Notes under the pieces: generated by a model
The model's input: only the letters and a program-made list of their open reading frames with translations
Told to the model about the DNA's origin: nothing
Databases searched by the model: none
Assembly (NCBI GenBank): GCA_903944135.1
Contig: CAJAQL010000005.1
Span: forward strand, 1 to 49,465
Length of the DNA: 49,465 nt
Direction: 5' to 3'
Source: an uncultured Parcubacteria group bacterium
GTDB taxonomy: Bacteria > Patescibacteriota > Minisyncoccia > UBA6257 > 2-01-FULL-56-20
Shown here: positions 378 through 49,465 of the stretch, one piece after another
How positions within the stretch are numbered: position 1 is the stretch's first letter
How the letters are laid out: the number at the start of each line of letters is the position of its first letter
Position numbers and translations under genes: made by a program

Positions 378-1640
378 ATGGCACAACAAAAGATCGAGAA
401 TATTAAAGTCAGTGCATTACGATTATGGTCGGAAAATCCACGTGATCCAATAAGCCCAGAGAGCACTGACTTTGACATTATAAAACGAGCTATTAATGAT
501 AACTCTGAAGATTGGAATTTGGATAAAATGGTGAATGAGATGGGTTCTCATTACGATTTCAGTGAGATTCCTACTGTAGTATATCTCAGTGGTATACCCG
601 TTGTGTTTGATGGCAATCGCCGTGTCGCAGTGCTCAAATATCTCCAAGATAAAAAGCTCTATCTATCGCTTACGAATAAGCTTTTTCCAAAGAGCGATGG
701 TCCCAAGGAACTTTGCGAGCTGCGAGAAATACCCTGTAATGTGTGCGATAAAGATACGGCACTTACTAATATTGAAAGAAAACACGTTAATAATGGATCA
801 TGGGGAACTCTCCAGCGAGAGTACTTTTTACATCAACATCGTGGGCAGCCCAAGAGCTTATTCCTTGTTATTGAAGAGCAAACGAAACTTATTAGTACCC
901 ACCCAGATCTTAACCAGGGCTTTGTAAGAGATGAGGTTTTTACCGAGAAGAATCTCAAGGAGATTGGTTTCGGTATGCAAAACGGAAAGCTTGTTTCTGG
1001 CTATAATGACGAAGAGCAGGAAAAAATATTAGAACAGGCTGTCTTGCTTGTTGAGGATAAAGAAATAACAACTCGCAAACATAGGGGTTCATTGAAGCAG
1101 GCATTATTGGAGAAACATCCAGATAGTAAGGAAATACTTACTGTCTTTGATGGTAATAAAAAAGTTGAGATGGTGAATTGTGAATTTCCTCAGGTAGTCC
1201 GCCGAACGCAGCGCGTGACCGGTCAAGACCCTATTTTTTTTGGTAAATGCTTATCGTTAAAGCCGGGAGATGTTAATAACCTCTATCGGGATATTGTCGA
1301 TTTGTATTCCTTTTATCACAACAAAAAAAGCGGGCTTTCGAAGAGTTTTCCCGCTCTTATACGAATGTCACTTCGTTTGATTGTTGAATCGGCAGCTGTT
1401 AATGAAAAGATCGAAGATTATGTGCCTGCTCATTTCGAAGCGGCAAAGAAGGCGCTTTCTCAAGATCAAAAAACCACTCTCTCCACTCAAGAGGTGAATA
1501 CTCCAGAGAAGCTTGTTAAGCTTTTAAATATCGGTGCGCATAAATATACAGCTTCAGCAAATATGGATCAGACGATGACAATGTCTGTCATTATTGGTGT
1601 TATGCTGGAAAAGACACACCCAAAGAAGAAAAAAGGATGA
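378..1640 (+). CDS. ParB/Srx-fold (ParB-like nuclease domain) protein with about 290 aa of uncharacterised C-terminal region
   Basis: The N-terminus IKVSALRLWSENPRDPI ... VVFDGNRRVAVLKYL resembles the ParB/sulfiredoxin-fold boxes. The stop overlaps the next start (ATGA at 1637-1640). Confidence 0.6.
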   Translation: MAQQKIENIKVSALRLWSENPRDPISPESTDFDIIKRAINDNSEDWNLDKMVNEMGSHYDFSEIPTVVYLSGIPVVFDGNRRVAVLKYLQDKKLYLSLTNKLFPKSDGPKELCELREIPCNVCDKDTALTNIERKHVNNGSWGTLQREYFLHQHRGQPKSLFLVIEEQTKLISTHPDLNQGFVRDEVFTEKNLKEIGFGMQNGKLVSGYNDEEQEKILEQAVLLVEDKEITTRKHRGSLKQALLEKHPDSKEILTVFDGNKKVEMVNCEFPQVVRRTQRVTGQDPIFFGKCLSLKPGDVNNLYRDIVDLYSFYHNKKSGLSKSFPALIRMSLRLIVESAAVNEKIEDYVPAHFEAAKKALSQDQKTTLSTQEVNTPEKLVKLLNIGAHKYTASANMDQTMTMSVIIGVMLEKTHPKKKKG

Positions 1641-2497
1641 GATTTTATTCACCACTGAGATATCCTGGGGGGAAAAATAGACTCGCAAAGTTTATTGCCT
1701 TGCTTTGCGAGACGAATAGGATAACGGACCAAAAGGGACATTATGTGGAGCCATATGCAGGAGGGGCTTCAGTTGCTCTACATCTGTTGTTCGAGGGTTA
1801 TGTATCAGAAGTAACAATAAACGACAGCGATAGATCTATATATGCATTTTGGCATACCGTGCTTTATGACGCTGACAAATTGATAAACAAGATTCGCTAT
1901 GCCAGGGTCAATGAAAGAACATGGCGGAAATGTAGAGAAGTGCAACAAAAGAAAGTAGAAGCGTCACTTTTTGAACTTGGTTACTCGACCTTCTTTCTTA
2001 ATCGAACGAATGTATCAGGTATTATAGACGGAGGGATGATTGGTGGTTTTAAGCAGGCCGGGGAATATAAAATAGGTTGTCGTTTCAATAAAAAAGAGTT
2101 GATTAATAGAATACGTACAATAGCTAAATATAAAGATCGGATACATCTATTCAATCTCGACGCACTCGATTTGATAAGGCAAATCGAAAAGAATGATTCG
2201 CCAAATATTATCTTCTACTTCGATCCTCCATATTACTTAAAAGGTCCCTCGCTATATTTAAATAGTTATGACTACTCTGATCATGAAAAAGTGCGTGAAG
2301 CTATCGGTGGGATAGGAAATGCGAAGTGGCTTATTTCGTATGATGCGGCGAAGGAGATAAAGAGTCTCTATCGTGGATACAGAAAAATTGAATATTCACT
2401 TCTTCATACAGCTCGCACTGCTAGAATGGGGGAAGAGATACTCTTTCTTAGCCCTAATATGTTCATCCCCCAGATTACTGACCCAACTAAGGTATAA
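1637..2497 (+). CDS. N6-adenine DNA methyltransferase, Dam/D12 class
   Basis: Contains RYPGGKNRLAKFI, VEPYAGGASV (AdoMet-binding motif) and FYFDPPY (DPPY catalytic motif). Confidence 0.85.
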   Translation: MRFYSPLRYPGGKNRLAKFIALLCETNRITDQKGHYVEPYAGGASVALHLLFEGYVSEVTINDSDRSIYAFWHTVLYDADKLINKIRYARVNERTWRKCREVQQKKVEASLFELGYSTFFLNRTNVSGIIDGGMIGGFKQAGEYKIGCRFNKKELINRIRTIAKYKDRIHLFNLDALDLIRQIEKNDSPNIIFYFDPPYYLKGPSLYLNSYDYSDHEKVREAIGGIGNAKWLISYDAAKEIKSLYRGYRKIEYSLLHTARTARMGEEILFLSPNMFIPQITDPTKV

Positions 2498-2770
2498 ATT
2501 ATATTCTCTAGGGAGCGAAAGTATCGACAAATATCAAAATAACCAAAATCCGCATTTTATTGAAAAACCGCGGAAAATAATCCCGAAATAGATATATCTA
2601 TCATCTCTTGTTTTGCCTCCAAATTAAGACTATTCGAGGTTTTTTATAAGAAAAAAGAAAACATAAGCCAAGATGTACCCTACGAGGTATGTCTCCTTTC
2701 CGTCTTTAATTAAAATCTATATACGCATCTCAAATTTCATATCTCCCAAAAAGGAATCCCAACCCCTTAT

Positions 2771-3139
2771 TTAGCCGAATATCCCAAAGAGTTTTTTCGT
2801 TTTTCCGTCCTTGTCTAAATAGTTATAGATTGATTCCCCAAATTTCAACTGAAACGCCGTTCGTATCATTGCCAGTTTTTCTTGAACTAATTTTTCTGAG
2901 CCATCAATCATAGCTTGGAATAGCAGAGCGCTTATTCCGGGAGGGAGCAGGTTGCTTTCTAGCCTATCCTCCATCTGTTCTTTGGTTTTTTCCCAATCTT
3001 TGACATAGACACTATGGGTCTTGGCCATCTGGAAGGTTATGTCGCAATTTTTAATGAGATCTGCGGCTTGGGTCATTTCTGCCAGCTCCGCCTGCGCCAG
3101 AAAGGCTTTTAGATATTCTTGTTCTTTTTCTGAAAGCAT
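2771..3139 (-). CDS. hypothetical protein (122 aa)
   Basis: Clean ORF in the AT-rich island with no recognisable motif. Confidence 0.4.
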   Translation of the reverse strand: MLSEKEQEYLKAFLAQAELAEMTQAADLIKNCDITFQMAKTHSVYVKDWEKTKEQMEDRLESNLLPPGISALLFQAMIDGSEKLVQEKLAMIRTAFQLKFGESIYNYLDKDGKTKKLFGIFG

Positions 3140-3229
3140 GGATTTATCTTTGTAGTAGTTTTTATCGTTTTGTGTACGGAATAGATATTCTTCTTCCGTA
3201 TTATCTTTCTGAGAAAATTCCTATATTTT

Positions 3230-3748
3230 TCATTGAGGTGTCGTATTAGAGAGATGAGTTGCAGAGAATGGGCACTGTTTCCTTGTATACAGTTCAAACA
3301 AGAAAGCAGAGTTTTCGTTATAGCCAGAAGCACGAAGATTATCTATTATATTTTCTGGCAATTTGCACTCCGCATAGTTAATTCCCTTATCTACGTCGGT
3401 TGTTGTGCTTGTTATAGCTCCATTGGAATCTATATTAGCAACATACTCTCCGGCTGGAATATCACTAGGAGCACCATCTGATCGAACTGCTGTCTGCTGA
3501 TTTGTCGTTGTGCTATTTTCTATAGTAACCGATTGAGGGCTGTTTTCTACGGAATTGCTTTGATTATTTAGTAAAGGGGTAACGAGGTCACTTGATGTCG
3601 CTTGCTGTAATGCGGTGTCGGCGATCGACATCGCTTGGCTGGCAAAAGACAATGCCTGTTGTTTTAGCTGTGCATTTGCTTCAAGCCCTGGCGCGGTGAG
3701 CAGGCTCAATGCCATTTGAAGTACGAGAATAACAGATGCAAAATTCAT
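3230..3748 (-). CDS. hypothetical secreted protein (172 aa)
   Basis: Signal-peptide-like N-terminus MNFASVILVLQMALSLLTAPGLEA followed by a Ser/Thr/Asn-rich region. Confidence 0.45.
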   Translation of the reverse strand: MNFASVILVLQMALSLLTAPGLEANAQLKQQALSFASQAMSIADTALQQATSSDLVTPLLNNQSNSVENSPQSVTIENSTTTNQQTAVRSDGAPSDIPAGEYVANIDSNGAITSTTTDVDKGINYAECKLPENIIDNLRASGYNENSAFLFELYTRKQCPFSATHLSNTTPQ

Positions 3749-4038
3749 AGATTTGAAATGTTTATTTAATTTTGAAAGTGCTGGCTAGAATCGGCCTTTT
3801 TAAACACAAAGCTCCCAGCCAGATTCATATACCTTTCGGTGTACGGCCTACAACGGCGCTCTGACTAGGAGCTTTCTACGTTGTAGGACTTTGCGCCATG
3901 CCCCGATTGCTCAAGGTTTAGGCGACTCTATTAAGTTGTAATTTAATGTTGCCACGAAAAGGTTTTAAAAGCCAATACTTCTAGAGAGGAAATTTAAAGA
4001 GATAGGGTAAAATCATTAAAAAGTTAGGGAAATGGCTC

Positions 4039-4067
4039 TTGACTTTTATCAGAAAGTGTGGTACAAT
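4039..4067 (+). promoter_or_regulatory. sigma70-type promoter for the rightward island operon
   Basis: TTGACT (4039-4044), 17-nt spacer, TGgTACAAT (extended -10, TACAAT at 4062-4067). Confidence 0.55.
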
Positions 4068-4192
4068 GCAAATGCGGGTTAAAAGACGGGTTAACCTGAG
4101 TTTCTACAATATTTCAGCCTAATTATCGAGGGGGGCGATCTTTGGGATGTATTATTAACCAAAGGTCGCTTTTTAGTACTTTTAAAAAATTA

Positions 4193-4495
4193 ATGAAGTC
4201 CATTAAAATAAGATTTCAATATTTTGCCAAGGCAAAAAATGGGTGGAGCACTTATACTTGTTTTGCGTACGCAATCCAAGGTATGCATTTCAGTCGGTAT
4301 AGTGTCCGTGAGTGGTTTAATAAATTAGTCGATTTAGAGGATTATCTACAAAAAGATAAAAAAGGCGTCCTAGACTTTTTAATGATGCTAAATAATAGCC
4401 CCAGGAGCCAACTTTTAAGGGGCAAAACGATGCTAGACGCGATTATTTTATCGCAGACGGGTAAATCCTCATTTTCAAACAAAAAGGTCAAATAA
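4193..4495 (+). CDS. hypothetical protein
   Basis: The ORF opens at TTG 4142 and the first ATG is at 4193. It lies downstream of the 4039-4067 promoter. No recognisable motif. Confidence 0.35.
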   Translation: MKSIKIRFQYFAKAKNGWSTYTCFAYAIQGMHFSRYSVREWFNKLVDLEDYLQKDKKGVLDFLMMLNNSPRSQLLRGKTMLDAIILSQTGKSSFSNKKVK

Positions 4496-4562
4496 AAGAG
4501 AATTTTTATAAAAAATAAGTAGAGATGCGTTTTGCAATTTTTACATTGAGAGTCAGTTTAAT

Positions 4563-4808
4563 ATGAGGGCGATAGACAAAAAATTTTCAGTAGAAAAATT
4601 AAAGGAAATAGATTCAAAATTAGCAGATCTTTCAGAATCCGAAATTATAGAAATTCGTGACTCTCTTTACGATCTGGGCCAACTTATCTTTGATGATTGG
4701 CTGGAAAATGGGAGCGGTTCCAAATATCCGGTTAGGTCATTACCAATATTGTGGAATGATAATAAAATTAAGCTATGCCAATTACGAGCACTCAGACAAA
4801 GGGAATAA
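4563..4808 (+). CDS. hypothetical small acidic protein, overlaps the recombinase start
   Basis: 81-aa ORF whose 3' end overlaps the start of the recombinase gene by 34 nt. An accessory or directionality role is speculative only. Confidence 0.35.
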   Translation: MRAIDKKFSVEKLKEIDSKLADLSESEIIEIRDSLYDLGQLIFDDWLENGSGSKYPVRSLPILWNDNKIKLCQLRALRQRE

Positions 4809-6169
4809 TTTATTGCCGCGTTTCTTCCAAGGAACAGGTTGAGGGAACGAGCTTGGATATGCAAGAACGGGTGTGTCGTGAATGGGCCGGTAAAAGGGGC
4901 ATTGAGGTTCTAGGGGTATTTGTGGATAAGGGTGAATCTGCAAAGACAGCGAACCGGCCCGAATTTTTGAAGGCGATTGGTTTCTGCTCTAAAAAGAAAA
5001 ACAGCGTCAATTTTTTCATTGTCTACAAGGTGGATCGCTTTGCAAGAAATCAGAATGACCACGTAACAGTTCGTGAGGTATTGAAACGGGTCGGCACGGA
5101 ATTACGTTCAGTTACTGAACCGATCAATGAGGAACCGATGGGTAAGGCAATGGAAGGTATGATGTCTGTCTTTGCAGAACTCGACAATAATCTGCGGGCC
5201 GAGCGATGCAAGAATGGCATGATGGAACGAGTGAAAGAGGGTGTTTGGGTATGGCCCGCTCCGATCGGTTACTATCGGCCGCGCAAAGGTGGGAATATAG
5301 CTCCCGATCCGACAACGAAGGACTACATAACCCTTATTTTCCAAGAATGGGCCAAGGGAACGCATACCTATCGTTCCTTGGCTCAATTCATGGCTGAGCG
5401 TGGTTTCCGGACGCATCATGGCAGGAAGCCGTTTTCTCAATTTATCGAGAGCATTATCAGAAACGAGGTGTATTGCGGTTATATTAATTCGTGGGGTATG
5501 CGCGTGAAAGGTACCGGCACATTCGAGCCAATCGTCAGTGAAGAATTATTCTTACGGTGCCAGCACAAGAACAAGACCCTTATGGGGCCGCGAAAAACAG
5601 GGAATCCCGATTTTCCATTGCGACGAACAATTTGCTTAGGTTGCATGGGTTCTCTTACGGCAAGCTATTCACACGGGAATGGTGGCGCATATCCGTATTA
5701 CCATCATCATGCGCATCACAATTGCTCACTGGCGAGGTTCATTCCGAAAGAAACTTTTGAGCAGTTGTTTTTGAAATATCTCCACGGGATCTCGCCTGAT
5801 AAGAAATATGAAAAATGGTTCAAGGCGATCATGCTCGACATCTGGCAGTCGAATTTCAAGAAGTTTGACGAGATGAACGGAACCGTCCAGAAAGAGATCG
5901 GTCAGCTTGAACAGGAGCGGCAGAAAATCTTTGAGGCCCAGCGTCGCAGCGTATATAGCGACGAAGAGTTTTTAGAGCAGAAGAATCTCATCAATCAGAG
6001 GATCAACGAGAAAACTCAGCTTTTGGTCGATAACCGTATCGAAGAATTCAATATGGATGAAGCGTTAACGTATTGCTTCAACTTCGTGCGTGATAGTGCG
6101 AAAACGTGGCTTCGGTTGAAGTACGAGCCAAGGATTCGGTTCCAAAAAAATATCTGTCCCGAAAAATAG
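4775..6169 (+). CDS. large serine recombinase (resolvase/invertase catalytic domain, recombinase domain, Cys/His-rich zinc ribbon, coiled coil)
   Basis: IIYCRVSSKEQ catalytic Ser motif, VDRFARN, Cys/His cluster CLGCMG...HHHAHHNC, and C-terminal coiled-coil-like QKEIGQLEQERQKIFEAQ. Confidence 0.9.
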   Translation: MPITSTQTKGIIYCRVSSKEQVEGTSLDMQERVCREWAGKRGIEVLGVFVDKGESAKTANRPEFLKAIGFCSKKKNSVNFFIVYKVDRFARNQNDHVTVREVLKRVGTELRSVTEPINEEPMGKAMEGMMSVFAELDNNLRAERCKNGMMERVKEGVWVWPAPIGYYRPRKGGNIAPDPTTKDYITLIFQEWAKGTHTYRSLAQFMAERGFRTHHGRKPFSQFIESIIRNEVYCGYINSWGMRVKGTGTFEPIVSEELFLRCQHKNKTLMGPRKTGNPDFPLRRTICLGCMGSLTASYSHGNGGAYPYYHHHAHHNCSLARFIPKETFEQLFLKYLHGISPDKKYEKWFKAIMLDIWQSNFKKFDEMNGTVQKEIGQLEQERQKIFEAQRRSVYSDEEFLEQKNLINQRINEKTQLLVDNRIEEFNMDEALTYCFNFVRDSAKTWLRLKYEPRIRFQKNICPEK

Positions 6170-6254
6170 ACGTTCGACGGAGAAAAATTTGGAACCACGA
6201 AATTGTCTAAGATTTATGCCCTTAATCAGGAATATGACGGTGAAAAATCCAATC

Positions 6255-6329
6255 TGGTGGACCGGAGGGGAGTCGGACCCCTGACCTCCTCATTGCAAAT
6301 GAGGCGTTCTACCACTGAACTACCGGCCC
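6255..6329 (-). tRNA. tRNA-Ala (anticodon UGC), CCA encoded
   Basis: Reverse complement GGGCCGGTAGTTCAGTGGTAGAACGCCTCATTTGCAATGAGGAGGTCAGGGGTCCGACTCCCCTCCGGTCCACCA folds as a cloverleaf. It has the G3:U70 Ala identity pair and anticodon loop TTTGCAA. Confidence 0.9.
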
Positions 6330-10391: not shown

Positions 10392-10430
10392 GCAATGACG
10401 AAAATTAATTTTAAAAATCTATTTCTTAAT

Positions 10431-10680
10431 CCGTCATTTCGAACGAAGCCTGCTTCGAGGTTTTCCGAGCGGCAAGGAATTCCTTTTTCTGTCGTCCCCG
10501 CCCCTCAACAGACTCGGGATAAACTCCGGCGGGGGATCCATGCTTCCGATCTTTTGCGTAAAGCACGGGTCCTTCAGCCAAGCCGGAGGATGACAGGAAT
10601 AAACATCGATTCCCGCTGGAACCTGTCTTCCGCACCCGCCCGTGCGGGTACAAGCTCCGGCCTACGCGGGGATGACGAGC
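10431..10680. repeat. cluster of GC-rich palindromic repeat units (degenerate type II plus extra hairpin units)
   Basis: Includes CTGTCGTCCCCGCC..CGGCGGGGGATCCATGCTTCC..AAAGCACGGG..GGAGGATGACAGG and CGCGGGGATGACGAG. The cluster lies inside the long ORF that opens at 10395. Confidence 0.75.
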
Positions 10681-11936
10681 GGATTGGAGGTTTCACTCTC
10701 GTCGAACTTCTGGTGGTCATCATGATCGTCGCTATCCTCTCGATCGTGGTCGTTCTCACGATGAACATTCCCGAACTCTTGAGGCAATCGCGCGACAGTT
10801 CGCGGCTTTCGGATATAAAAACACTGAACGGCGCCGTGACGTTCTATCTTAACGAACTGCCGGGCGGGAATTTAGGTTCGTCGACCACTATCTATGTTTC
10901 CTTGCCGGACAAAACGATCTCGGGAAACACCACGTCCACGTGCACGTCGCTTAATTTACCTACGCCGCCCACGGGTTATAGCTATCAATGTTCTTCGCCG
11001 CAGGCGTATCGCCACGTCGACGGCACGGGGTGGATGCCAGTGAATCTTGCCCAGCTTTCGTCCGGCTCGCCAATCTCGGTTTTGCCGGTTGATCCCGCAA
11101 ACCAGACATCTACTGATCTTTACTATACCTATACCGCAAATGGCGGGAGTTATGTTTTTACCAGTTTTTTTGAATCGCAGAAGGATGCCAAGATGATGGA
11201 AAACAGTGGCGGATCTGATGCTTCCGTTTATGCGGTCGGAACTAATCTCACCGCACCGGATGTTGGAAGGGGTTTTGTCGGTTATTGGCCGATGGACGAG
11301 GGGACGGGAACTATGGCTTACGATCAGTCGGGGGCAGGAAATAATGGGGCATTGATCAACGGACCTACATGGATAGCGGGTAAAATAAATAGCGCCTTAA
11401 GCTTCAATGATAGTAATTCATATGTTTCTGTTTCGGATACCTCTACCTTGGAGTACGTCGGAGGCAATATGACCTTGGCGGCGTGGATCAACGTGAACAG
11501 CACGGAAACGACCGGTGGGTGGATTTTCTCCAAACCGTGGAATGGGGGTGGTCAATATAACTATACAGTTACGCTTAACTCGAATAATACGCTTAGTTTT
11601 GGAATCGTTGGTTCTGGTTCTTACTCTATTTCCACCACTGCGGTCATACCATCTAATTCTTGGCATTATATTGCCGCGACGGTAAATTCCAGTGGCCAAA
11701 TGTCTATTTATATCGACGGTAATTTAAGTGCCTCCGGGACAGATGGTATTGTGGGTTGGACTCCATCATCTGGCAACGGTAGCATTCCTTTGAGCATAGG
11801 GACTCTCTATCCGTACGGAACTGGTTCATGGACCCATTCGAATTTTACATTCGGTGGTTTAATAGATGATGCGAGGATCTATAACAGAGCATTGTCTGTC
11901 ACTGAAATTAAGGCGATCTATAACGCGGAAAAGTGA
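10590..11936 (+). CDS. large pilin-like protein with C-terminal LamG/concanavalin-like domain
   Basis: GG|FTLVELLVVIMIVAIL class III signal at about 10685. C-terminal GYWPMDEG...GLIDDARIYNRALSVTEIKAIY is LamG-like. The ORF is open from 10395; the nearest in-frame ATG before the signal is 10590, so the start is uncertain. Confidence 0.7.
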   Translation: MTGINIDSRWNLSSAPARAGTSSGLRGDDERIGGFTLVELLVVIMIVAILSIVVVLTMNIPELLRQSRDSSRLSDIKTLNGAVTFYLNELPGGNLGSSTTIYVSLPDKTISGNTTSTCTSLNLPTPPTGYSYQCSSPQAYRHVDGTGWMPVNLAQLSSGSPISVLPVDPANQTSTDLYYTYTANGGSYVFTSFFESQKDAKMMENSGGSDASVYAVGTNLTAPDVGRGFVGYWPMDEGTGTMAYDQSGAGNNGALINGPTWIAGKINSALSFNDSNSYVSVSDTSTLEYVGGNMTLAAWINVNSTETTGGWIFSKPWNGGGQYNYTVTLNSNNTLSFGIVGSGSYSISTTAVIPSNSWHYIAATVNSSGQMSIYIDGNLSASGTDGIVGWTPSSGNGSIPLSIGTLYPYGTGSWTHSNFTFGGLIDDARIYNRALSVTEIKAIYNAEK

Positions 11937-17640: not shown

Positions 17641-17762
17641 TGTCGTCCCCGTGAAAACGGGGACCCAGGTTCATCTCGAAAAATTCTGGATCCCCGCCTG
17701 CGCGGGGACGACAGAAAAAGATTTGGATCGCGGGTCATCCGCCTGCGCGGAGAATGGCGGAA
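17641..17762. repeat. repeat cluster (type I plus extra hairpin); its last 75 nt are identical to 18371-18445
   Basis: TGTCGTCCCCGTGAAAACGGGGACCCAGG..CTGGATCCCCGCCTGCGCGGGGACGACAG..GGGTCATCCGCCTGCGCGGAGAATGGCGG. Confidence 0.85.
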
Positions 17763-18308: not shown

Positions 18309-18445
18309 TGTCATGGTCCGCGGAGGCGGACGGCTCGTGCTTTCAGTTTTCTCTCTGTTTTTTAAGGCATGGATCCCCGCCTGCGCGGGGACGACAGAAA
18401 AAGATTTGGATCGCGGGTCATCCGCCTGCGCGGAGAATGGCGGAA
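18309..18445. repeat. repeat cluster (type II-like plus extra hairpin)
   Basis: TGTCATGGTCCGCGGAGGCGGACGGCTCGTGCTTT..AAGGCATGGATCCCCGCCTGCGCGGGGACGACAG..GGGTCATCCGCCTGCGCGGAGAATGGCGG. Confidence 0.85.
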
Positions 18446-27281: not shown

Positions 27282-28559
27282 TTATTCGTATCTGAGCGCT
27301 TCAATGGGGCTTTTCTTTGCGGCTTGGCGTGCGGGATAGAGGCCGAAGGCGACACCGCAGGCGGTCGAAACAAGCACGGCGATCAGAACTGCCGAAAGCG
27401 GGAACTCGAATGTCCAGCCGCCGGCGACAACGTGCGAGAGAACGAGCCATGCGAGCGCGGTAACTGCGGCTCCGACCGCGATGCCGATAATGCCGCCGAG
27501 GAAGGTGAGCATGACGGACTCGATGAGAAATTGCTGGAGAATATCGCGATCGGTTGCACCGACGGCCTTCCTGAGGCCGATCTCGCGCGTGCGTTCGACG
27601 ACGGAGACGAGCATGATGTTCATGATGCCGATGCCGCCGACCACGAGCGAGATAGATGCGATCGCTGCGAGGAAAAGCGTAAGGACCGATGTGATGCTGC
27701 CGAGCAGTGAAAGAATATCCTGTTGGGTTTCGATCGTGAAGTCGTCCTTGCTTGATGTTGTGATGCCATGATCGTGTTCCAGCACGGATTCGATGCGTGA
27801 TTTTACGAACGAGATGTCATAGGAAGAATTGGCCGATGCGAAAACGTAATTGAAATAGGTGATGCCGAGCATCTGGCTTTGAGCGACCGTGATCGGAACG
27901 ATGACGAGGTCGTCCTGATTCACGCCGCCCACTCCCGTTCCCTTGGCGGGAAGGACGCCGACGACGCGGAAGCTTGTGTTCTTGAGCCGGATATCCTTTC
28001 CGACGGGATCCATGTTCTTGCCGAAGAGCGTGGTTGCGAGATCGGATCCAATGACCGCGACGTGGTTGAAGGCCGTTACGTCGGCGGCAGTGAAGGGATA
28101 TCCGTTTGCAATGGTGAAATTCCGAACGGGGAAGAAGTTGGCTGTCGTGCCTTGATAGGTGACCGTAAGATCGTTGTCGCCGTAGACCGCGTCGGCTTGG
28201 CCGCTTACGAGCGGAACGACGGCGTCAATGGACGGCTCGCGCGAGAGCGCGTCGACATCGTTCTGAACAAGGCTCGTGATGATGATGCCTTGGGATGCGG
28301 CGGGGGACTGGAAGCGGCCATTGTTGGTGCCGCCCGGAATGATGAAAATGAGATTAGAACCAATACCCTGCACCTGGCCCAGAATGTAGTCCTGCGCCGA
28401 TTGGCCGATCGACATCAGAATGATGACCGAGGCGATGCCGATCACGATACCAAGCATGGTGAGCGCGGAGCGCATTTTGCCGTGCTGAAGGCTGTCGACC
28501 GCCGAATGGAATGAATCTTTGACGCGCATGATATATAGGTATTCGTTTCTTTTTGTCAT
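27282..28559 (-). CDS. ABC transporter permease, MacB/FtsX family
   Basis: MacB-type periplasmic domain between TM1 and TM2, and a C-terminal FtsX module with ERTREIGLRKAVGA. An alternative start is at 28529 (MRVKDSF). Confidence 0.85.
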   Translation of the reverse strand: MTKRNEYLYIMRVKDSFHSAVDSLQHGKMRSALTMLGIVIGIASVIILMSIGQSAQDYILGQVQGIGSNLIFIIPGGTNNGRFQSPAASQGIIITSLVQNDVDALSREPSIDAVVPLVSGQADAVYGDNDLTVTYQGTTANFFPVRNFTIANGYPFTAADVTAFNHVAVIGSDLATTLFGKNMDPVGKDIRLKNTSFRVVGVLPAKGTGVGGVNQDDLVIVPITVAQSQMLGITYFNYVFASANSSYDISFVKSRIESVLEHDHGITTSSKDDFTIETQQDILSLLGSITSVLTLFLAAIASISLVVGGIGIMNIMLVSVVERTREIGLRKAVGATDRDILQQFLIESVMLTFLGGIIGIAVGAAVTALAWLVLSHVVAGGWTFEFPLSAVLIAVLVSTACGVAFGLYPARQAAKKSPIEALRYE

Positions 28560-28638
28560 GGTCCCGGAAGCGGGACCATCCGTGCTTCAATTCTTCTTGA
28601 TTTCAAAAAGCACGGATTCCCGCCTGCGCGGGGATGAC
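28554..28638. repeat. GC-rich palindromic repeat, type II, overlapping the annotated start codon
   Basis: TGTCATGGTCCCGGAAGCGGGACCATCCGTGCTTC..AAAAAGCACGGATTCCCGCCTGCGCGGGGATGACC. Confidence 0.85.
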
Positions 28639-28672: not shown

Positions 28673-29401
28673 TCATTTGAAGAATTCTTCTTTCGACTTT
28701 CTTTGTTTTATGACCGGCGTATCGCTTTCAATGAGGCCGTCTTTCATGCGGATAATGCGGTTTGCGAACTCCGCAGTATAGGTTTCGTGCGTTACGAGTA
28801 TGATCGTATGTCCTTGCTTGTTCAGATCGTCGAGGATGCCAATGACCTGCGCTCCTGACTTGGAATCGAGGTTGCCGGTCGGTTCGTCGGCAAAGATGAC
28901 GTTCGGATTGTTCACGAGCGCACGGGCGATCGCGACCCGCTGTTTTTGTCCGCCTGACAGGCGTCCGGCTTCGCTCTGTATTTTTTCACCGAGGTCGACG
29001 GAACGGATCGCGTCCTCGATCATTTTCTTTCGCGCGCTGGCGGGTACGCTGTCGTTGTAGAGCAGGGGAATCTCGACATTCTCGTATACCGTAAGCCGCG
29101 AGAGAAGATTGAAAGCCTGAAAGACGAATCCCATCTCCTTGTTCCGCATGTGGGCGAGCTCTTGGTCGGACATATCGTCAATGCTCTTTCCGAAAAAGGA
29201 ATAATTGCCGCCGGTCGGGCGATCGAGGAAGCTGAGGATCTGAAGCAGGGTTGATTTGCCGGAACCCGAGGGGCCGATGATGGAGACAAAATCACCCTTA
29301 TCAATACTGAAAGAAACGCCGCGGATCGCCGACGTGACGTTATCGTCGTCGATATAATCTTTTTTAAGCTCTTTGACGTCGATCATGGGATTTTTTGTCA
29401 T
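28673..29401 (-). CDS. ABC transporter ATP-binding protein (MacB/LolD-like)
   Basis: Walker A GPSGSGKST, signature LSGGQKQRVAIARAL, Walker B VIFADEPT. An alternative start is at 29386 (MIDVKEL). Confidence 0.9.
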   Translation of the reverse strand: MTKNPMIDVKELKKDYIDDDNVTSAIRGVSFSIDKGDFVSIIGPSGSGKSTLLQILSFLDRPTGGNYSFFGKSIDDMSDQELAHMRNKEMGFVFQAFNLLSRLTVYENVEIPLLYNDSVPASARKKMIEDAIRSVDLGEKIQSEAGRLSGGQKQRVAIARALVNNPNVIFADEPTGNLDSKSGAQVIGILDDLNKQGHTIILVTHETYTAEFANRIIRMKDGLIESDTPVIKQRKSKEEFFK

Positions 29402-29486
29402 GGTCCCGGAAGCGGGACCATCCGTGCTTCAATTCTTCTTGATTTTATTTTGAAAGCACTGGTTCCCCGCCTGCGCGGGGATGACA
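29396..29486. repeat. GC-rich palindromic repeat, type II, overlapping the annotated start codon
   Basis: TGTCATGGTCCCGGAAGCGGGACCATCCGTGCTTC..GAAAGCACTGGTTCCCCGCCTGCGCGGGGATGACA. Confidence 0.85.
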
Positions 29487-45186: not shown

Positions 45187-45257
45187 CTGTCGTCCCCGGG
45201 AAAACGGGGACCCAGGTTATTATCATTCTGGATTCCCGCCTGCGCGGGAATGACAAG
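45187..45257. repeat. GC-rich palindromic repeat, type I
   Basis: CTGTCGTCCCCGGGAAAACGGGGACCCAGG..CTGGATTCCCGCCTGCGCGGGAATGACAAG. Confidence 0.85.
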
Positions 45258-46932: not shown

Positions 46933-48612
46933 ATGACCGATGCACCGAAAGGGCAAGATGATCTTCATTCGCAGCTCGCGAAGATCCGGCGTGCCGGCGA
47001 GGAGCGCGCGGCGGAGCGTCTTGCGGAAAAATTAGGATATCCTTATGCCGACCTCTCCAAAATGCCGGTTTCTTTGGATGCCGTTCGTACGATCCCTGAG
47101 GCTGATGCGCGCGACGGGAAGATATCCGCCATCGAGGTACGCGACAAGAAGATCGCTGTCGTCGCAGTGAATCCGATCTTGCCCGCAACCATGAAGGCGC
47201 TCAATGATCTTGCCGCACAGAAGTACGAGACGAAAGTCTTCGTGGTGTCGCCATCAAGCCTGGAGGCGGCATTTGCCCTATATAAGTTCGTGAAGCCGCC
47301 GACGGAGTCCGTTGCGGGTAAAGTCGCCATTTCAAAGAATCGTCTCGAAGAGTTAACGGGCCAGCTCGTGACGCTTGAAGCCATCCATACTACGATCATG
47401 AATCTGGACTTTACGAAAGCTTCACCGAGCGATCTTATCCAGATATTGTTCGCGGGAGCGCTTGCGGTCCATGCGTCTGATATTCACACTGAAGCAGGGG
47501 AAAAGCAGGCAAAGATCCGTTTCCGCGTGGATGGCCTTTTGCATGATATCTGCGATCTTCCGCTTCCGTTCTATGCCAATTTCGTCTCACGCGTGAAATT
47601 GCTTTCGGAGATGAAAATCAATGTCCGGAACGAAGCGCAGGACGGGCGCTTCACGATCAATCTTGCTGGCAAGGATATCGAAATGCGCGTTTCGGTCATT
47701 CCGGCGGAGTTCGGCGAAACGATCGTCATGCGTGTTCTTGATCCGTCGGCTACGATGGTCGGTTTGCCGAGCCTTGGTTTGCGCACCGACAATCTCGTGA
47801 TCGTAAAGAGGGCGCTCGACCGGCCGAATGGCCTTATTTTAAACACTGGCCCGACGGGCTCCGGCAAAACGACGACGCTCTACGCATTTCTTCGTTCCGT
47901 GAACAGTCCGGAGATGAAGATCATCACGCTTGAAGATCCGATCGAATACCGCATCGAGGGCATTGAACAGACCCAAGTGGATGAGGAGGCGGGATACACG
48001 TTCGCGAACGGCCTTCGCGCCATCGTCCGGCAGGATCCTGACGTGATCCTCGTCGGCGAAATCCGCGATCTCGAAACGGCTGATATTGCCATGCAATCGG
48101 CTTTGACCGGACATCTCGTGCTCTCGACGCTCCATACGAACGACGCGGTCGGTGCCGTACCGCGGCTCATCAATCTTGGCGTGAAAGCGGTTTCGATCGG
48201 GCCGGCATTGGCGCTCGTGATCGCCCAGAGGCTGGTTCGCGTGCTATGCCCCGAGTGTAAAAAGGAAGTACCTATCGATGACGCAATGAACGAAAAAATA
48301 AAAGCATTGCTTGCCCGTTTGCCTGCGCAGGTCGACAAAACGCTCTATGAGCATCCGACGTTTTTCGCTCCGGTCGGTTGCCCTAAATGCAACGGCATTG
48401 GTTATAAAGGGCGCGTTGGTATTTTTGAATTTCTGGAAGGCGGTCCCGATCTTGAAACTACGATACTTCATGAGGCGTCCGAAGTTGCGCTCCGCGAAGT
48501 GGCGAAACGACAGGGGATGGTCTCGATGCAGGAAGACGGAATCCTAAAGGCGATCGAAGGAAAGACGACGCTCGATGAAGTAAAGGATGCGACCGGTGAG
48601 CTTGCGTGGTGA
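46933..48612 (+). CDS. pilB: second PilB/GspE-family pilus assembly ATPase (diverged paralogue)
   Basis: GPTGSGKTTT, LVGEIRD, LTGHLVLSTLHTND, CPECK...CPKCNG, and an N-terminal T2SSE_N-like region. Confidence 0.9.
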   Translation: MTDAPKGQDDLHSQLAKIRRAGEERAAERLAEKLGYPYADLSKMPVSLDAVRTIPEADARDGKISAIEVRDKKIAVVAVNPILPATMKALNDLAAQKYETKVFVVSPSSLEAAFALYKFVKPPTESVAGKVAISKNRLEELTGQLVTLEAIHTTIMNLDFTKASPSDLIQILFAGALAVHASDIHTEAGEKQAKIRFRVDGLLHDICDLPLPFYANFVSRVKLLSEMKINVRNEAQDGRFTINLAGKDIEMRVSVIPAEFGETIVMRVLDPSATMVGLPSLGLRTDNLVIVKRALDRPNGLILNTGPTGSGKTTTLYAFLRSVNSPEMKIITLEDPIEYRIEGIEQTQVDEEAGYTFANGLRAIVRQDPDVILVGEIRDLETADIAMQSALTGHLVLSTLHTNDAVGAVPRLINLGVKAVSIGPALALVIAQRLVRVLCPECKKEVPIDDAMNEKIKALLARLPAQVDKTLYEHPTFFAPVGCPKCNGIGYKGRVGIFEFLEGGPDLETTILHEASEVALREVAKRQGMVSMQEDGILKAIEGKTTLDEVKDATGELAW

Positions 48613-48707: not shown

Positions 48708-48716
48708 TGATATAAT
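48708..48716 (+). promoter_or_regulatory. extended -10 box 6 nt upstream of ATG 48723
   Basis: TGaTATAAT, ttctcc, ATG. Confidence 0.5.
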
Positions 48717-48722
48717 TTCTCC

Positions 48723-49465
48723 ATGTATCATCGTTTTTCTCACGAGGCTTTCACCCTGATCGATCCCCGTCTTCACGGGGATGACAAGAGGTTTCAAGGC
48801 TTCACCTTGATTGAATTGTTGATCGTGATCGCCATCATCGCCATCCTCAGTATCGTCGTCGTCCTCACCCTCAACCCCGCAGAGATGCTCCGTCAGGGCA
48901 GGGACAGCAACCGCTCCTCTGATCTCGATACCCTGACCCATGCCTTATCCCTCTATCAGACGGACCAATCGGTAACGAGCGGATCGGGTTCCCTCGGCTC
49001 ATCCACCCTCATCTATCTCTCCCTGCCGGACAGCTCAAGCACCTGCGGCTCCTGGAATCTCCCGTCTCCTCCCGCGGGCTACAGCTATCAGTGCGCTCCC
49101 ACGAGTTCCTACCGGAATACGAATGGTCAGGGCTGGATCCCCGTGAACCTCGCTTCCACGACGACCGGGAATCCTCTGGGCCAGCTTCCGATAGATCCCA
49201 CGAATGCCTCTTCCTCCGGCCTCTATTACGCCTATACGACGAACGGCATCCAGTATGAGGTCACGTCCCTCTACGAATCAAGCAAATACAAGGCATCATC
49301 AGCCCAGAATCCAACGATTCCTTCCTATCCCGAGGTCAACGCCAAAGGATCAAATCTTGCCCTGAATCCGCTCTTCAGTTCCCAGGGACTTGTCGGTTAT
49401 TGGCCTCTCGATGAAGGCAATGGATCTACGACCCAGGATCTGTCGGGCAACGGGAATACGGGAAC
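48723..49465 (+). CDS. LamG-type large pilin, paralogue of 10590-11936 (partial; runs off the window)
   Basis: Not in the ORF track because there is no stop in the window. My translation: MYHRFSHEAFTLIDPRLHGDDKRFQG|FTLIELLIVIAIIAILSIVVVLTLNPAEMLRQGRDS...GYSYQC...GLVGYWPLDEGNGSTTQDLSGNGNTG, collinear with the 10590 gene. Confidence 0.75.
   Translation, partial: MYHRFSHEAFTLIDPRLHGDDKRFQGFTLIELLIVIAIIAILSIVVVLTLNPAEMLRQGRDSNRSSDLDTLTHALSLYQTDQSVTSGSGSLGSSTLIYLSLPDSSSTCGSWNLPSPPAGYSYQCAPTSSYRNTNGQGWIPVNLASTTTGNPLGQLPIDPTNASSSGLYYAYTTNGIQYEVTSLYESSKYKASSAQNPTIPSYPEVNAKGSNLALNPLFSSQGLVGYWPLDEGNGSTTQDLSGNGNTG
48755..48788 (+). repeat. single repeat hairpin unit inside the pilin leader-peptide coding region
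   Basis: CTGATCGATCCCCGTCTTCACGGGGATGACAAG, translated as LIDPRLHGDDK. Confidence 0.7.

Follow-up and report, generated by a model that had tools for sequence, protein, structure and literature searches.

A palindromic repeat translated between two prepilin-processing motifs in a LamG-type pilin gene, and its possible origin by recombination between pilin 5' ends

Contig CAJAQL010000005.1 of an uncultured Paceibacteria-like bacterium, the 49,465-nt stretch of DNA analysed here and referred to as the window, ends within a gene for a LamG-type type IV pilin whose prepilin leader contains a hairpin repeat between two copies of the prepilin-processing motif. The open reading frame (ORF) extends past the window end. 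Its translation begins MYHRFSHEAFTLIDPRLHGDDKRFQGFTLIELLIVIAIIAIL and consists of MYHRFSHE-AFTLID-PRLHGDDKRFQ-GFTLIELLIVIAIIAILSIVVVL and the residues that follow. We propose, with moderate confidence, that recombination between the 5' ends of pilin genes extended this leader, that cleavage takes place at the downstream motif copy (G-FTLIE, cut between G and F), that the upstream copy (AFTLID) is a dead relic, and that the hairpin between them, a repetitive extragenic palindrome (REP), is tolerated. The locus was compared with other loci (L0xx) and with homologous proteins (P0xxx). The pilin has 1959 homologues, mostly 400-430 aa long with N_methyl and Laminin_G_3 domains, and their sources name Paceibacterota/Patescibacteria. 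Coordinates of the features are collected in Table 1.

The position of the start codon decides whether the hairpin is translated. ATG 48723 follows 6 nt behind an extended -10 box, TGaTATAAT (TGATATAAT), and no Shine-Dalgarno-like purine run is present. This arrangement would imply a leaderless or near-leaderless mRNA, which probably starts at or beside this ATG. The order TGnTATAAT-N6-ATG is kept in 6 of 10 loci read (window, L081, L082, L005, L006 and L007), and near variants are found in L083 (8-nt spacing) and L002 (TACAAT). In several other window genes, too, the start codon follows a -10-like box at a distance of 6-7 nt, without a Shine-Dalgarno sequence. An independent gene call on the ENA contig has the same ATG as start, 111 nt past the stop codon of the preceding ATPase gene. 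No ATG, GTG or TTG occurs in frame between 48723 and the Gly codon of the downstream motif. Translation from the hairpin-tail ATG (48781) would be in another frame and would end at a stop after nine codons. Because the start at ATG 48723 is supported and no later in-frame start exists, the hairpin is translated within a 25-residue leader. An earlier note on this DNA, made from the letters alone, had taken ATG 48723 as the likely start and had read the leader as MYHRFSHE-AFTLID-PRLHGDDKRFQ-GFTLIE, with the repeat inside its reading frame; promoter conservation and translation support it on both points. In 119 homologues the median leader length is 10 aa, and only 5 have leaders of at least 25 aa.

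The same note had described an imperfect direct repeat around the hairpin, and this was readily recovered. The 17-mers GCTTTCACCCTGATCGA (48747-48763) and GGCTTCACCTTGATTGA (48798-48814) are equal at 13/17 positions with the hairpin between them, the left one sharing the first two bases of the hairpin. When the 93-nt region was shuffled 2000 times with its dinucleotides kept, a direct repeat of at least 13/17 arose 33 times. When both strands of the whole window were searched for 17-mers matching the right copy at 13 or more positions, only the left copy and a site in a different pilin gene (16908) came up. Since this sole other match is a pilin gene, the left 17-mer is pilin-type DNA and not noise. 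The hairpin itself (GATCCCCGTCTTCACGGGGATGAC, 48762-48785) has an 8-bp stem with the arms ATCCCCGT (48763-48770) and ACGGGGAT (48775-48782) and the 4-nt loop CTTC, and the adjoining GACA (48783-48786) reads as a TGTC tag on the minus strand. For the exact hairpin 0.00 chance occurrences are expected, and the family pattern gave 14 matches versus 0.05 expected. The RNA fold of 48723-48830 includes the stem (minimum free energy -33.4 kcal/mol, z = -2.26 versus shuffles). Contigs of two independent pond-metagenome studies showed zero differences over 48720-49047; the locus is genuine and no assembly artefact.

Table 1. Features of the pilin locus and of related sites in the window.
Feature	Position	Strand	Basis or remark
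PilB/GspE-type assembly ATPase	46933..48612	+	Pfam T2SSE, E = 1.8e-118; directly 5' of the pilin gene
Extended -10 box TGaTATAAT	48708..48716	+	read in the sequence; same arrangement in homologues
25-residue prepilin leader MYHRFSHEAFTLIDPRLHGDDKRFQ, coding sequence	48723..48797	+	translation; independent gene call on the ENA contig
Upstream motif copy GCT TTC ACC CTG ATC GA (A-F-T-L-I-D)	48747..48763	+	motif comparison with homologues
REP hairpin with tag	48762..48786	+	family scan; encodes D-P-R-L-H-G-D-D in the pilin frame
Out-of-frame mini-ORF MTRGFKASP-stop	48781..48810	+	opens at the REP-tail ATG
Spacer AAG AGG TTT CAA (K-R-F-Q), 12 nt	48786..48797	+	basic end of the functional leader
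Downstream motif GGC TTC ACC TTG ATT GAA (G-F-T-L-I-E)	48798..48815	+	predicted prepilin-peptidase site, cut before F at 48801
Mature LamG-type type IV pilin	48801..49465	+	gene truncated by the window end; homologues with N_methyl and Laminin_G_3
LamG pilin paralogue 1 leader, nested/degenerate REPs	10590..10706	+	ORF 10395/10590-11936; last REP ends at 10676

The two motif copies differ in what surrounds them. The Pfam profile N_methyl (PF07963) matches residues 22-46 only, which is the second copy (E = 1.1e-08). A class III signal peptide has a short basic leader, G/A at -1, F at +1 and E at +5, with about 20 hydrophobic residues behind; the second copy agrees throughout, KRFQ-G-FTLIE being followed by LLIVIAIIAILSIVVVL. 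The first copy departs from the class III pattern at E5, which is Asp, and in the hydrophobic segment: behind A-FTLID come charged residues without a hydrophobic helix. The first site would be disabled by the Asp at +5 together with the loss of the helix behind it, and prepilin peptidase is predicted to cut at G-FTLIE, the only part matching the N_methyl profile. The Ala of the first copy is not a degenerate residue. Among 119 homologues the residue at -1 is A in 69, G in 46 and S in 4, and since Ala is the majority state, A-FTLI is a normal site in the LamG pilin family. The earlier description of an intact downstream and a degenerate upstream site thus stands for the former but not for the Ala of the latter. 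No peptidase A24 gene was found among the 20 window ORFs scanned, the window being part of the genome only.

Comparison with relatives suggests that the first copy is the native one. Judged by mature sequence, the nearest homologues are P0001-P0008 (65-87% identity, with P0001 87% identical over mature residues 31-215). They carry one motif only, behind a short leader such as MYRDKHQA, MGQQNSPRSA or one ending in HRFSFRDDFPQHSSA. The single motif of L081, L005 and L082 is 16/17 identical to the first copy of the window gene and 12-14/17 identical to the second. By this comparison AFTLID is read as the relic of a native cleavage site. The double motif is found in 5/119 homologues, with junctions after FTLI, FTLIELLI or FTLIELLVV and duplicated lengths of 15, 24 and 27 nt. 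P0077 (L002) reads REP-QGSCK-AFTLI-REP-KRNQ-GFTLIE, with the junction and the 12-nt spacer of the window and the stem variant CCTCGT/ACGAGG. In P0037 (L003, MQKAFTLIELLI-PRQDRDKSSQ-GFTLIELL) and P0045 (L004, MRSAFPLIQLLVV-PPRRARNTSSR-GFTLIELL) a hairpin in decay separates the motifs, and the 10 kb of L003 showed no REP family. P0096 (L006) has MHQRKGFTLIELLVV, 27 residues with a nested second hairpin, and then GFTLIELL. P0044 (L007) has two REPs as an inverted pair, in frame and downstream of the conserved promoter, and then AFTPLD-RQSRHQT-AFTLIE. When representatives were searched exhaustively, P0121 (AFTLIDPRFHEDDKRNQAFTLIE) was recovered as well, together with other first copies in decay (AFTLIA, AFTPIA, SFTLTV, GFTLIL). 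The duplicated length is thus variable. First copies are found in states from intact to decayed, as expected of a relic. Compared with its closest homologues the window gene does carry an extra in-frame block, of 51 nt, as the earlier note would lead one to expect, but the double motif exists with other junctions as well.

Repeat sequence had been claimed for the leaders of both LamG pilin paralogues of the window, and this is the case. In paralogue 1 a degenerate REP ends at 10676, 12 nt before the GGT TTC of G-FTLVE (from 10689) and in the same frame as in the second pilin. The 12-nt distance between GAC and the Gly codon also recurs in L002, L003, L004 and L006. From the preceding pilin stop to G-FTLVE of paralogue 1 (10395-10688), 98 codons are open through three or four nested or degenerate REPs, and the database entry P0147 starts at ATG 10590, itself inside a REP tail. 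In all pilin leaders with REPs (48762-48785, 10656-10676, L002, L007, P0122 and P0020) the frame is the one in which GAYGAC gives Asp-Asp or Asn-Asp, and none of them is read in the second frame that is free of stops.

The window contains about 26 copies of a repeat family that includes this hairpin, many of them in inverted pairs, with stems that differ by compensatory changes and with conserved flanks (cTGGAT or gcacGGAT on one side, GAYGACAra on the other). Written on the REP strand, the layout is tTGTC - (A/G)T-stem - 4-nt loop - stem - CCA(G). In sequence the family fits the CGTC/TGTC-tagged REP superfamily (Di Nocera, De Gregorio and Rocco 2013; PMC3733652). Members of this class, which includes Rickettsia RPE-4/RPE-6 and Neisseria dRS3, have a CGTC, often TGTC or CCTC, tag, an 8-9-bp stem with complementary A/T at positions 1-2, a 4-5-nt loop and a short unpaired CCA tail, form frequent inverted dimers, many of which are heterodimers, and occur inside ORFs, N-termini included (PMC3733652). 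In the window TGTC was found in 22/26 copies and xGTC (GGTC, AGTC, CGTC) in the other four; the pilin copy has cTTGTC. The pilin copy, ATCCCCGT / GAAG / ACGGGGAT, has an 8-bp stem starting with AT and a 4-nt loop, and many other stems begin with GT (a G-T first pair) and have the loops GCAG, GAAG, GAAA, GGAG or 5 nt. Inverted dimers lie at 17642/17693, 21939/21976, 27189/27234, 45189/45235 and 46802/46847, the partners differing in stem/loop type. With the class the pilin copy shares the tag, the 8-bp AT-starting stem and the 4-nt loop, and the window family the inverted pairs, the many stem variants per genome and the presence inside ORFs including N-termini. The family differs in its Patescibacteria-like host, which belongs to a phylum outside the five listed for CGTC repeats (PMC3733652), and in its tails: CCAG ends about half of the copies and CCGTGCTT the remainder, and the pilin copy has CGA instead of CCA because the Ile-Asp codons abut the stem. 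Duplication of a host motif around a REP is not described in the class-defining paper, where a text search found neither 'target site' nor 'duplication' (PMC3733652). Rfam holds no family for the hairpin, and its only matches in the window are 2 tRNAs and a LOOT RNA.

Other copies of the family deserve mention in their own right. The exact repeats 17687-17762 = 18370-18445 (76 nt) and 28550-28603 = 29392-29445 (54 nt) consist of REP pairs plus spacers, and whole REP dimers have therefore been copied recently. The ATG of a REP tail (GGGACC ATG ACA AAA) is the first start codon of the minus-strand ORFs 27282-28559 and 28673-29401, which encode a MacB/FtsX permease and an ABC ATPase, and is found again at 45250. 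REPs may supply start codons or 5'-end structure to genes.

Direct evidence that pilin genes of this group exchange segments was obtained from related loci. L081 (3068-3690) and L005, from the same metagenome, share ~620 nt at 100% identity, and the genes are otherwise 50-60% identical. The 5' edge of the identical tract falls in the codons of the N-terminal helix. The two genes differ in genomic context, and in leader and LamG domain they are unrelated or reach 50-60% identity. The shared tract is a case of segmental gene conversion or recombination between pilin genes. Likewise, P0004, P0005 and P0006 have unrelated leaders and are 99-100% identical over mature residues 31-215. L006 resembles the single-motif locus L083 (MHQRKG-FTLIE) in promoter, leader and first motif, and its spacer is related to those of L003 and L004. 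For the window gene itself, the assembly graph of the source sample branches at 48747 (window 48747-48776), which is the first base of the upstream motif. The unitig starting there has a depth of 29.5 versus 9.7 for the upstream unitig, and a second entry path of 37 nt has a depth of 16.6. As the unitig at 48747 is three times deeper and has two entry paths, identical gene bodies lie behind more than one upstream context.

Tandem prepilin motifs are not restricted to these relatives. One genome per GTDB species was scanned for two FTLIE-coding motifs 21-51 nt apart, which gave 66 loci (L008-L073), 59 of them in frame. The loci belong to Planctomycetota, Verrucomicrobiota, Lentisphaerota, Kiritimatiellia, lineages of the candidate phyla radiation (CPR), a Bacillota isolate and Proteobacteria. 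Their general form is FTLIE(LL) - basic spacer - [AG]FTLIELLVV, as in L040 (686-763, minus strand) and L021 (4275-4352 and 6202-6279), with the recurrent spacer families LLACQPKPWRRQARA, LPFDKLRVVRQRKPE and LPVVSRVKARA. The spacers are strongly basic (3.8 K/R vs 0.4 D/E) and partly hairpin-prone (mean z = -0.8; 9/58 below -2), and within the 8-kb loci none was found outside pilin-like genes. Where a genome has several copies, the downstream copy and the spacer are nearly invariant among paralogues and the upstream copy varies. Within one gene the two copies are no more alike than copies from different genes of the same genome. In L042 at least three tandem 75-nt units consist of the gene's own leader plus the motif. 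As judged from these sequences, the pattern is unlike in-place duplication by an inserting element and agrees with pilin 5' ends having been partly duplicated or exchanged. In full-text searches of the literature no account of tandem prepilin motifs came up.

On the account we favour, the leader of the window gene would have been lengthened from ~8 to 25 residues by the in-frame 51-nt block, which comprises the CGTC/TGTC-tagged REP hairpin, the Lys-Arg spacer of 12 nt and the (G)FTLI codons for a second time. The leader carries the presumably dead motif copy, eight REP-encoded residues and the Lys-Arg end. Segmental gene conversion, one-sided homologous recombination and template switching are candidate routes. 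The right-hand junction would lie in the N-terminal codons common to all pilin genes, and the left-hand junction probably where the Thr-Leu-Ile-Glu codons (CCTGATCGA) share a short microhomology with the REP tail (CCTGGATC). The insertion would be tolerated because the REP-encoded residues leave with the discarded leader and never reach the pilus. Several observations weigh against this account. A donor gene with REP-AAGAGGTTTCAA-GGCTTCACCTTGATT was not found, and a module scan of the metagenome gave unrelated matches only: the pattern GGRGAYGAC-N12-GGNTTYACNYTNRTHGAR had 7 matches, all in ordinary genes with an SD-like GGAGATGAC and a start codon inside the 12 nt, and none with a REP module. 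Synteny with the window is lacking in the closest homologues, and the 'native site' therefore rests on sequence similarity, not on orthology. AFTLID-REP-KRxQ is common to the window protein, P0077 and P0121 although their mature parts are only ~50% identical to it. The double unit may therefore be of old date, or the whole of it may be mobile; the polarity 'first copy native, second imported' would then lack a firm basis in the window gene. A single old duplication by some insertion mechanism may also lie behind the arrangement. Cleavage at the second site, too, is a prediction.

Related processes are known from other bacteria. In Neisseria, gene conversion between pilE and pilS makes pilin genes mosaic. 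The L081/L005 tract of 620 nt resembles this system as a segmental exchange between pilin copies with breakpoints in conserved sequence. In contrast to Neisseria, no silent cassettes, G-quadruplex (G4) element or programmed system were identified here, and what the exchange would leave behind is a second leader motif, whereas in Neisseria it is the exposed domain that varies. Homology-facilitated illegitimate recombination in naturally transformable bacteria uses one homologous anchor and one microhomology junction. The window gene would match this with its right side in ~50 nt common to all pilin genes and its left side with a similarity of only 4-6 nt (CCTG..GA); unlike the known cases, the process is purely inferred here and no donor was found. 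Rickettsia palindromic elements are small repeats that are translated in their host proteins and tolerated where the extra residues are harmless. The window repeat is likewise translated in a host protein; it differs in lying in a proteolytically removed segment and in being accompanied by a second copy of a processing motif. In-frame insertion of the Rickettsia elements in protein-coding genes is described in work cited in PMC3733652.

The earlier note had explained the arrangement as the footprint of an element inserted at the cleavage-site codons with duplication of its target. In this scenario, which we consider unlikely, a REP transposed into the motif, duplicated ~15-17 bp, and the copies have since diverged. 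The flanks of the hairpin do match at 13/17 positions, and with one gap AGGCTTTCACCCTGATCGA and AGGC-TTCACCTTGATTGA match at 16/18, the change from Ala to Gly then being a 1-nt deletion. The same junction, ATA followed by GAT, in L002 would moreover suggest a recurrent site. As a test, the best 17-mer match between the left and right flanks of each of the 26 copies was compared with that between flanks of different copies. None of the other 25 window copies had flanking direct repeats above background: cognate flanks scored 8-13/17, the same distribution as non-cognate ones, and a score of 13 was reached only by the pilin copy and by one copy flanked by neighbouring REPs. Furthermore, the scenario requires the 12-nt spacer to belong to the element. 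The tails of the other copies have only GACARA in common, and the spacer is therefore not part of it. Neither terminal inverted repeats beyond the hairpin nor a nearby transposase were found in the window, and no transposase is known for the CGTC REP class (PMC3733652). The varying duplicated lengths of the relatives also speak against transposition, as does the same architecture with non-REP spacers: in relatives the double motif has different junctions, its hairpin has decayed or the vicinity lacks a hairpin family, and across phyla tandem motifs enclose unrelated basic spacers. Lack of duplications elsewhere, together with a double motif in repeat-free relatives, is the combination that the earlier note had itself named as telling against its reading, and essentially this combination was found. 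A target duplication is thus not borne out.

Other explanations concern function, annotation or mobility. The extended leader could be a selected functional unit, in which the mRNA hairpin controls stability or translation of the leaderless transcript, or a decoy motif with a basic spacer modulates recognition by the peptidase. This would be compatible with a recombinational origin and appears rather doubtful to us. The hairpins of window and L002 differ by a compensatory pair (CCCCGT/ACGGGG vs CCTCGT/ACGAGG), but both stem variants are ordinary REPs of the window, so that the difference may reflect the source copies and a regulatory role of the hairpin is possible but not required. Frame and 12-nt spacing are constant in six genes, and AFTLID is kept in three distant proteins with otherwise unrelated leaders; yet the feature is missing from 95% of homologues and the hairpin has decayed in L003 and L004. 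The low energy of the local fold, the many window start codons abutted by REPs and the uniformly basic cross-phylum spacers agree with a function, whereas those spacers are only weakly hairpin-prone. It is very unlikely that the gene is mis-started, with translation beginning elsewhere and the REP extragenic, or that it is a decaying pseudogene. Many N-terminal REPs are indeed extragenic through mis-annotation (PMC3733652), REP-tail ATGs serve as first start codons of other window ORFs, and without an imperfect 8-nt tandem copy (AGGTTTCA followed by AGGCTTCA, 48788-48803) the REP ATG would read MTRG-FTLIE, a complete short prepilin. However, as the gene stands this ATG is out of frame and no alternative in-frame start lies between 48723 and the Gly codon, the arrangement of promoter and ATG is conserved, the ORF is open and closely similar to P0001, and L002 and L007 likewise hold in-frame REPs behind a conserved promoter. 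A switch, in which RecA-independent deletion of the 51 nt restores a short leader and causes phase variation, is scarcely credible. Direct repeats bracketing a hairpin are a classic slippage substrate and most relatives have the single-motif form, but the repeats are only 13/17 identical, and the contigs of two samples, which cannot reveal rare variants, contained no deletion allele or joint across the 51 nt. Finally, we tentatively raise the possibility that a motif copy, a basic and often hairpin-forming spacer and a second motif copy together make up a self-propagating leader cassette. As both of its ends are N-terminal codons common to pilin-like genes, it could be gene-converted into any of them harmlessly. 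It would explain why the same spacer families occur in many paralogues of one genome, the spread over Planctomycetota, Verrucomicrobiota, Lentisphaerota and CPR, and the occurrence of AFTLID-REP-KRxQ in the window, P0077 and P0121 despite their divergent bodies. In an equally tentative variant of this idea the decoy motif has been co-opted to regulate prepilin processing.

Some further candidates were set aside. The first 24 nt of the leader were considered as a decayed first REP, which would give a tandem of REP, spacer and motif as in L002. The alignment score against the adjacent REP was reached by 1034/5000 shuffles and that against the best of 25 REPs by 23/500, which is not convincing. 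Translational bypassing between matching take-off and landing codons was dismissed as the insert is in frame and stop-free in every case. An 11-kb contig that seemed to have an exact 47-mer in common with the second motif gave no match at 99% likeness and was dropped.

The locus indicates that selfish hairpin repeats can be accommodated safely in a prepilin leader that is cut off, in genomes whose genes have next to no 5' untranslated region. Programs that call start codons and signal peptides mis-handle such genes; the entries P0044 and P0147 start inside a hairpin or at a later Met. Tandem prepilin motifs with a basic spacer are the wider observation and may matter more than the single locus. 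They provide a simple natural test of what prepilin peptidase needs to choose its site, and they mark recombination within very large families of pilin-like genes.

Apart from the pilin genes and REPs, one region of the window attracted attention. It spans 1637-6329 and contains a D12 adenine methyltransferase gene (1637-2497), the LOOT RNA match (3809-3924, minus strand, 56 bits), a large serine recombinase gene (4775-6169) and a tRNA gene (6258-6329, minus strand). This region may be an integrated element.

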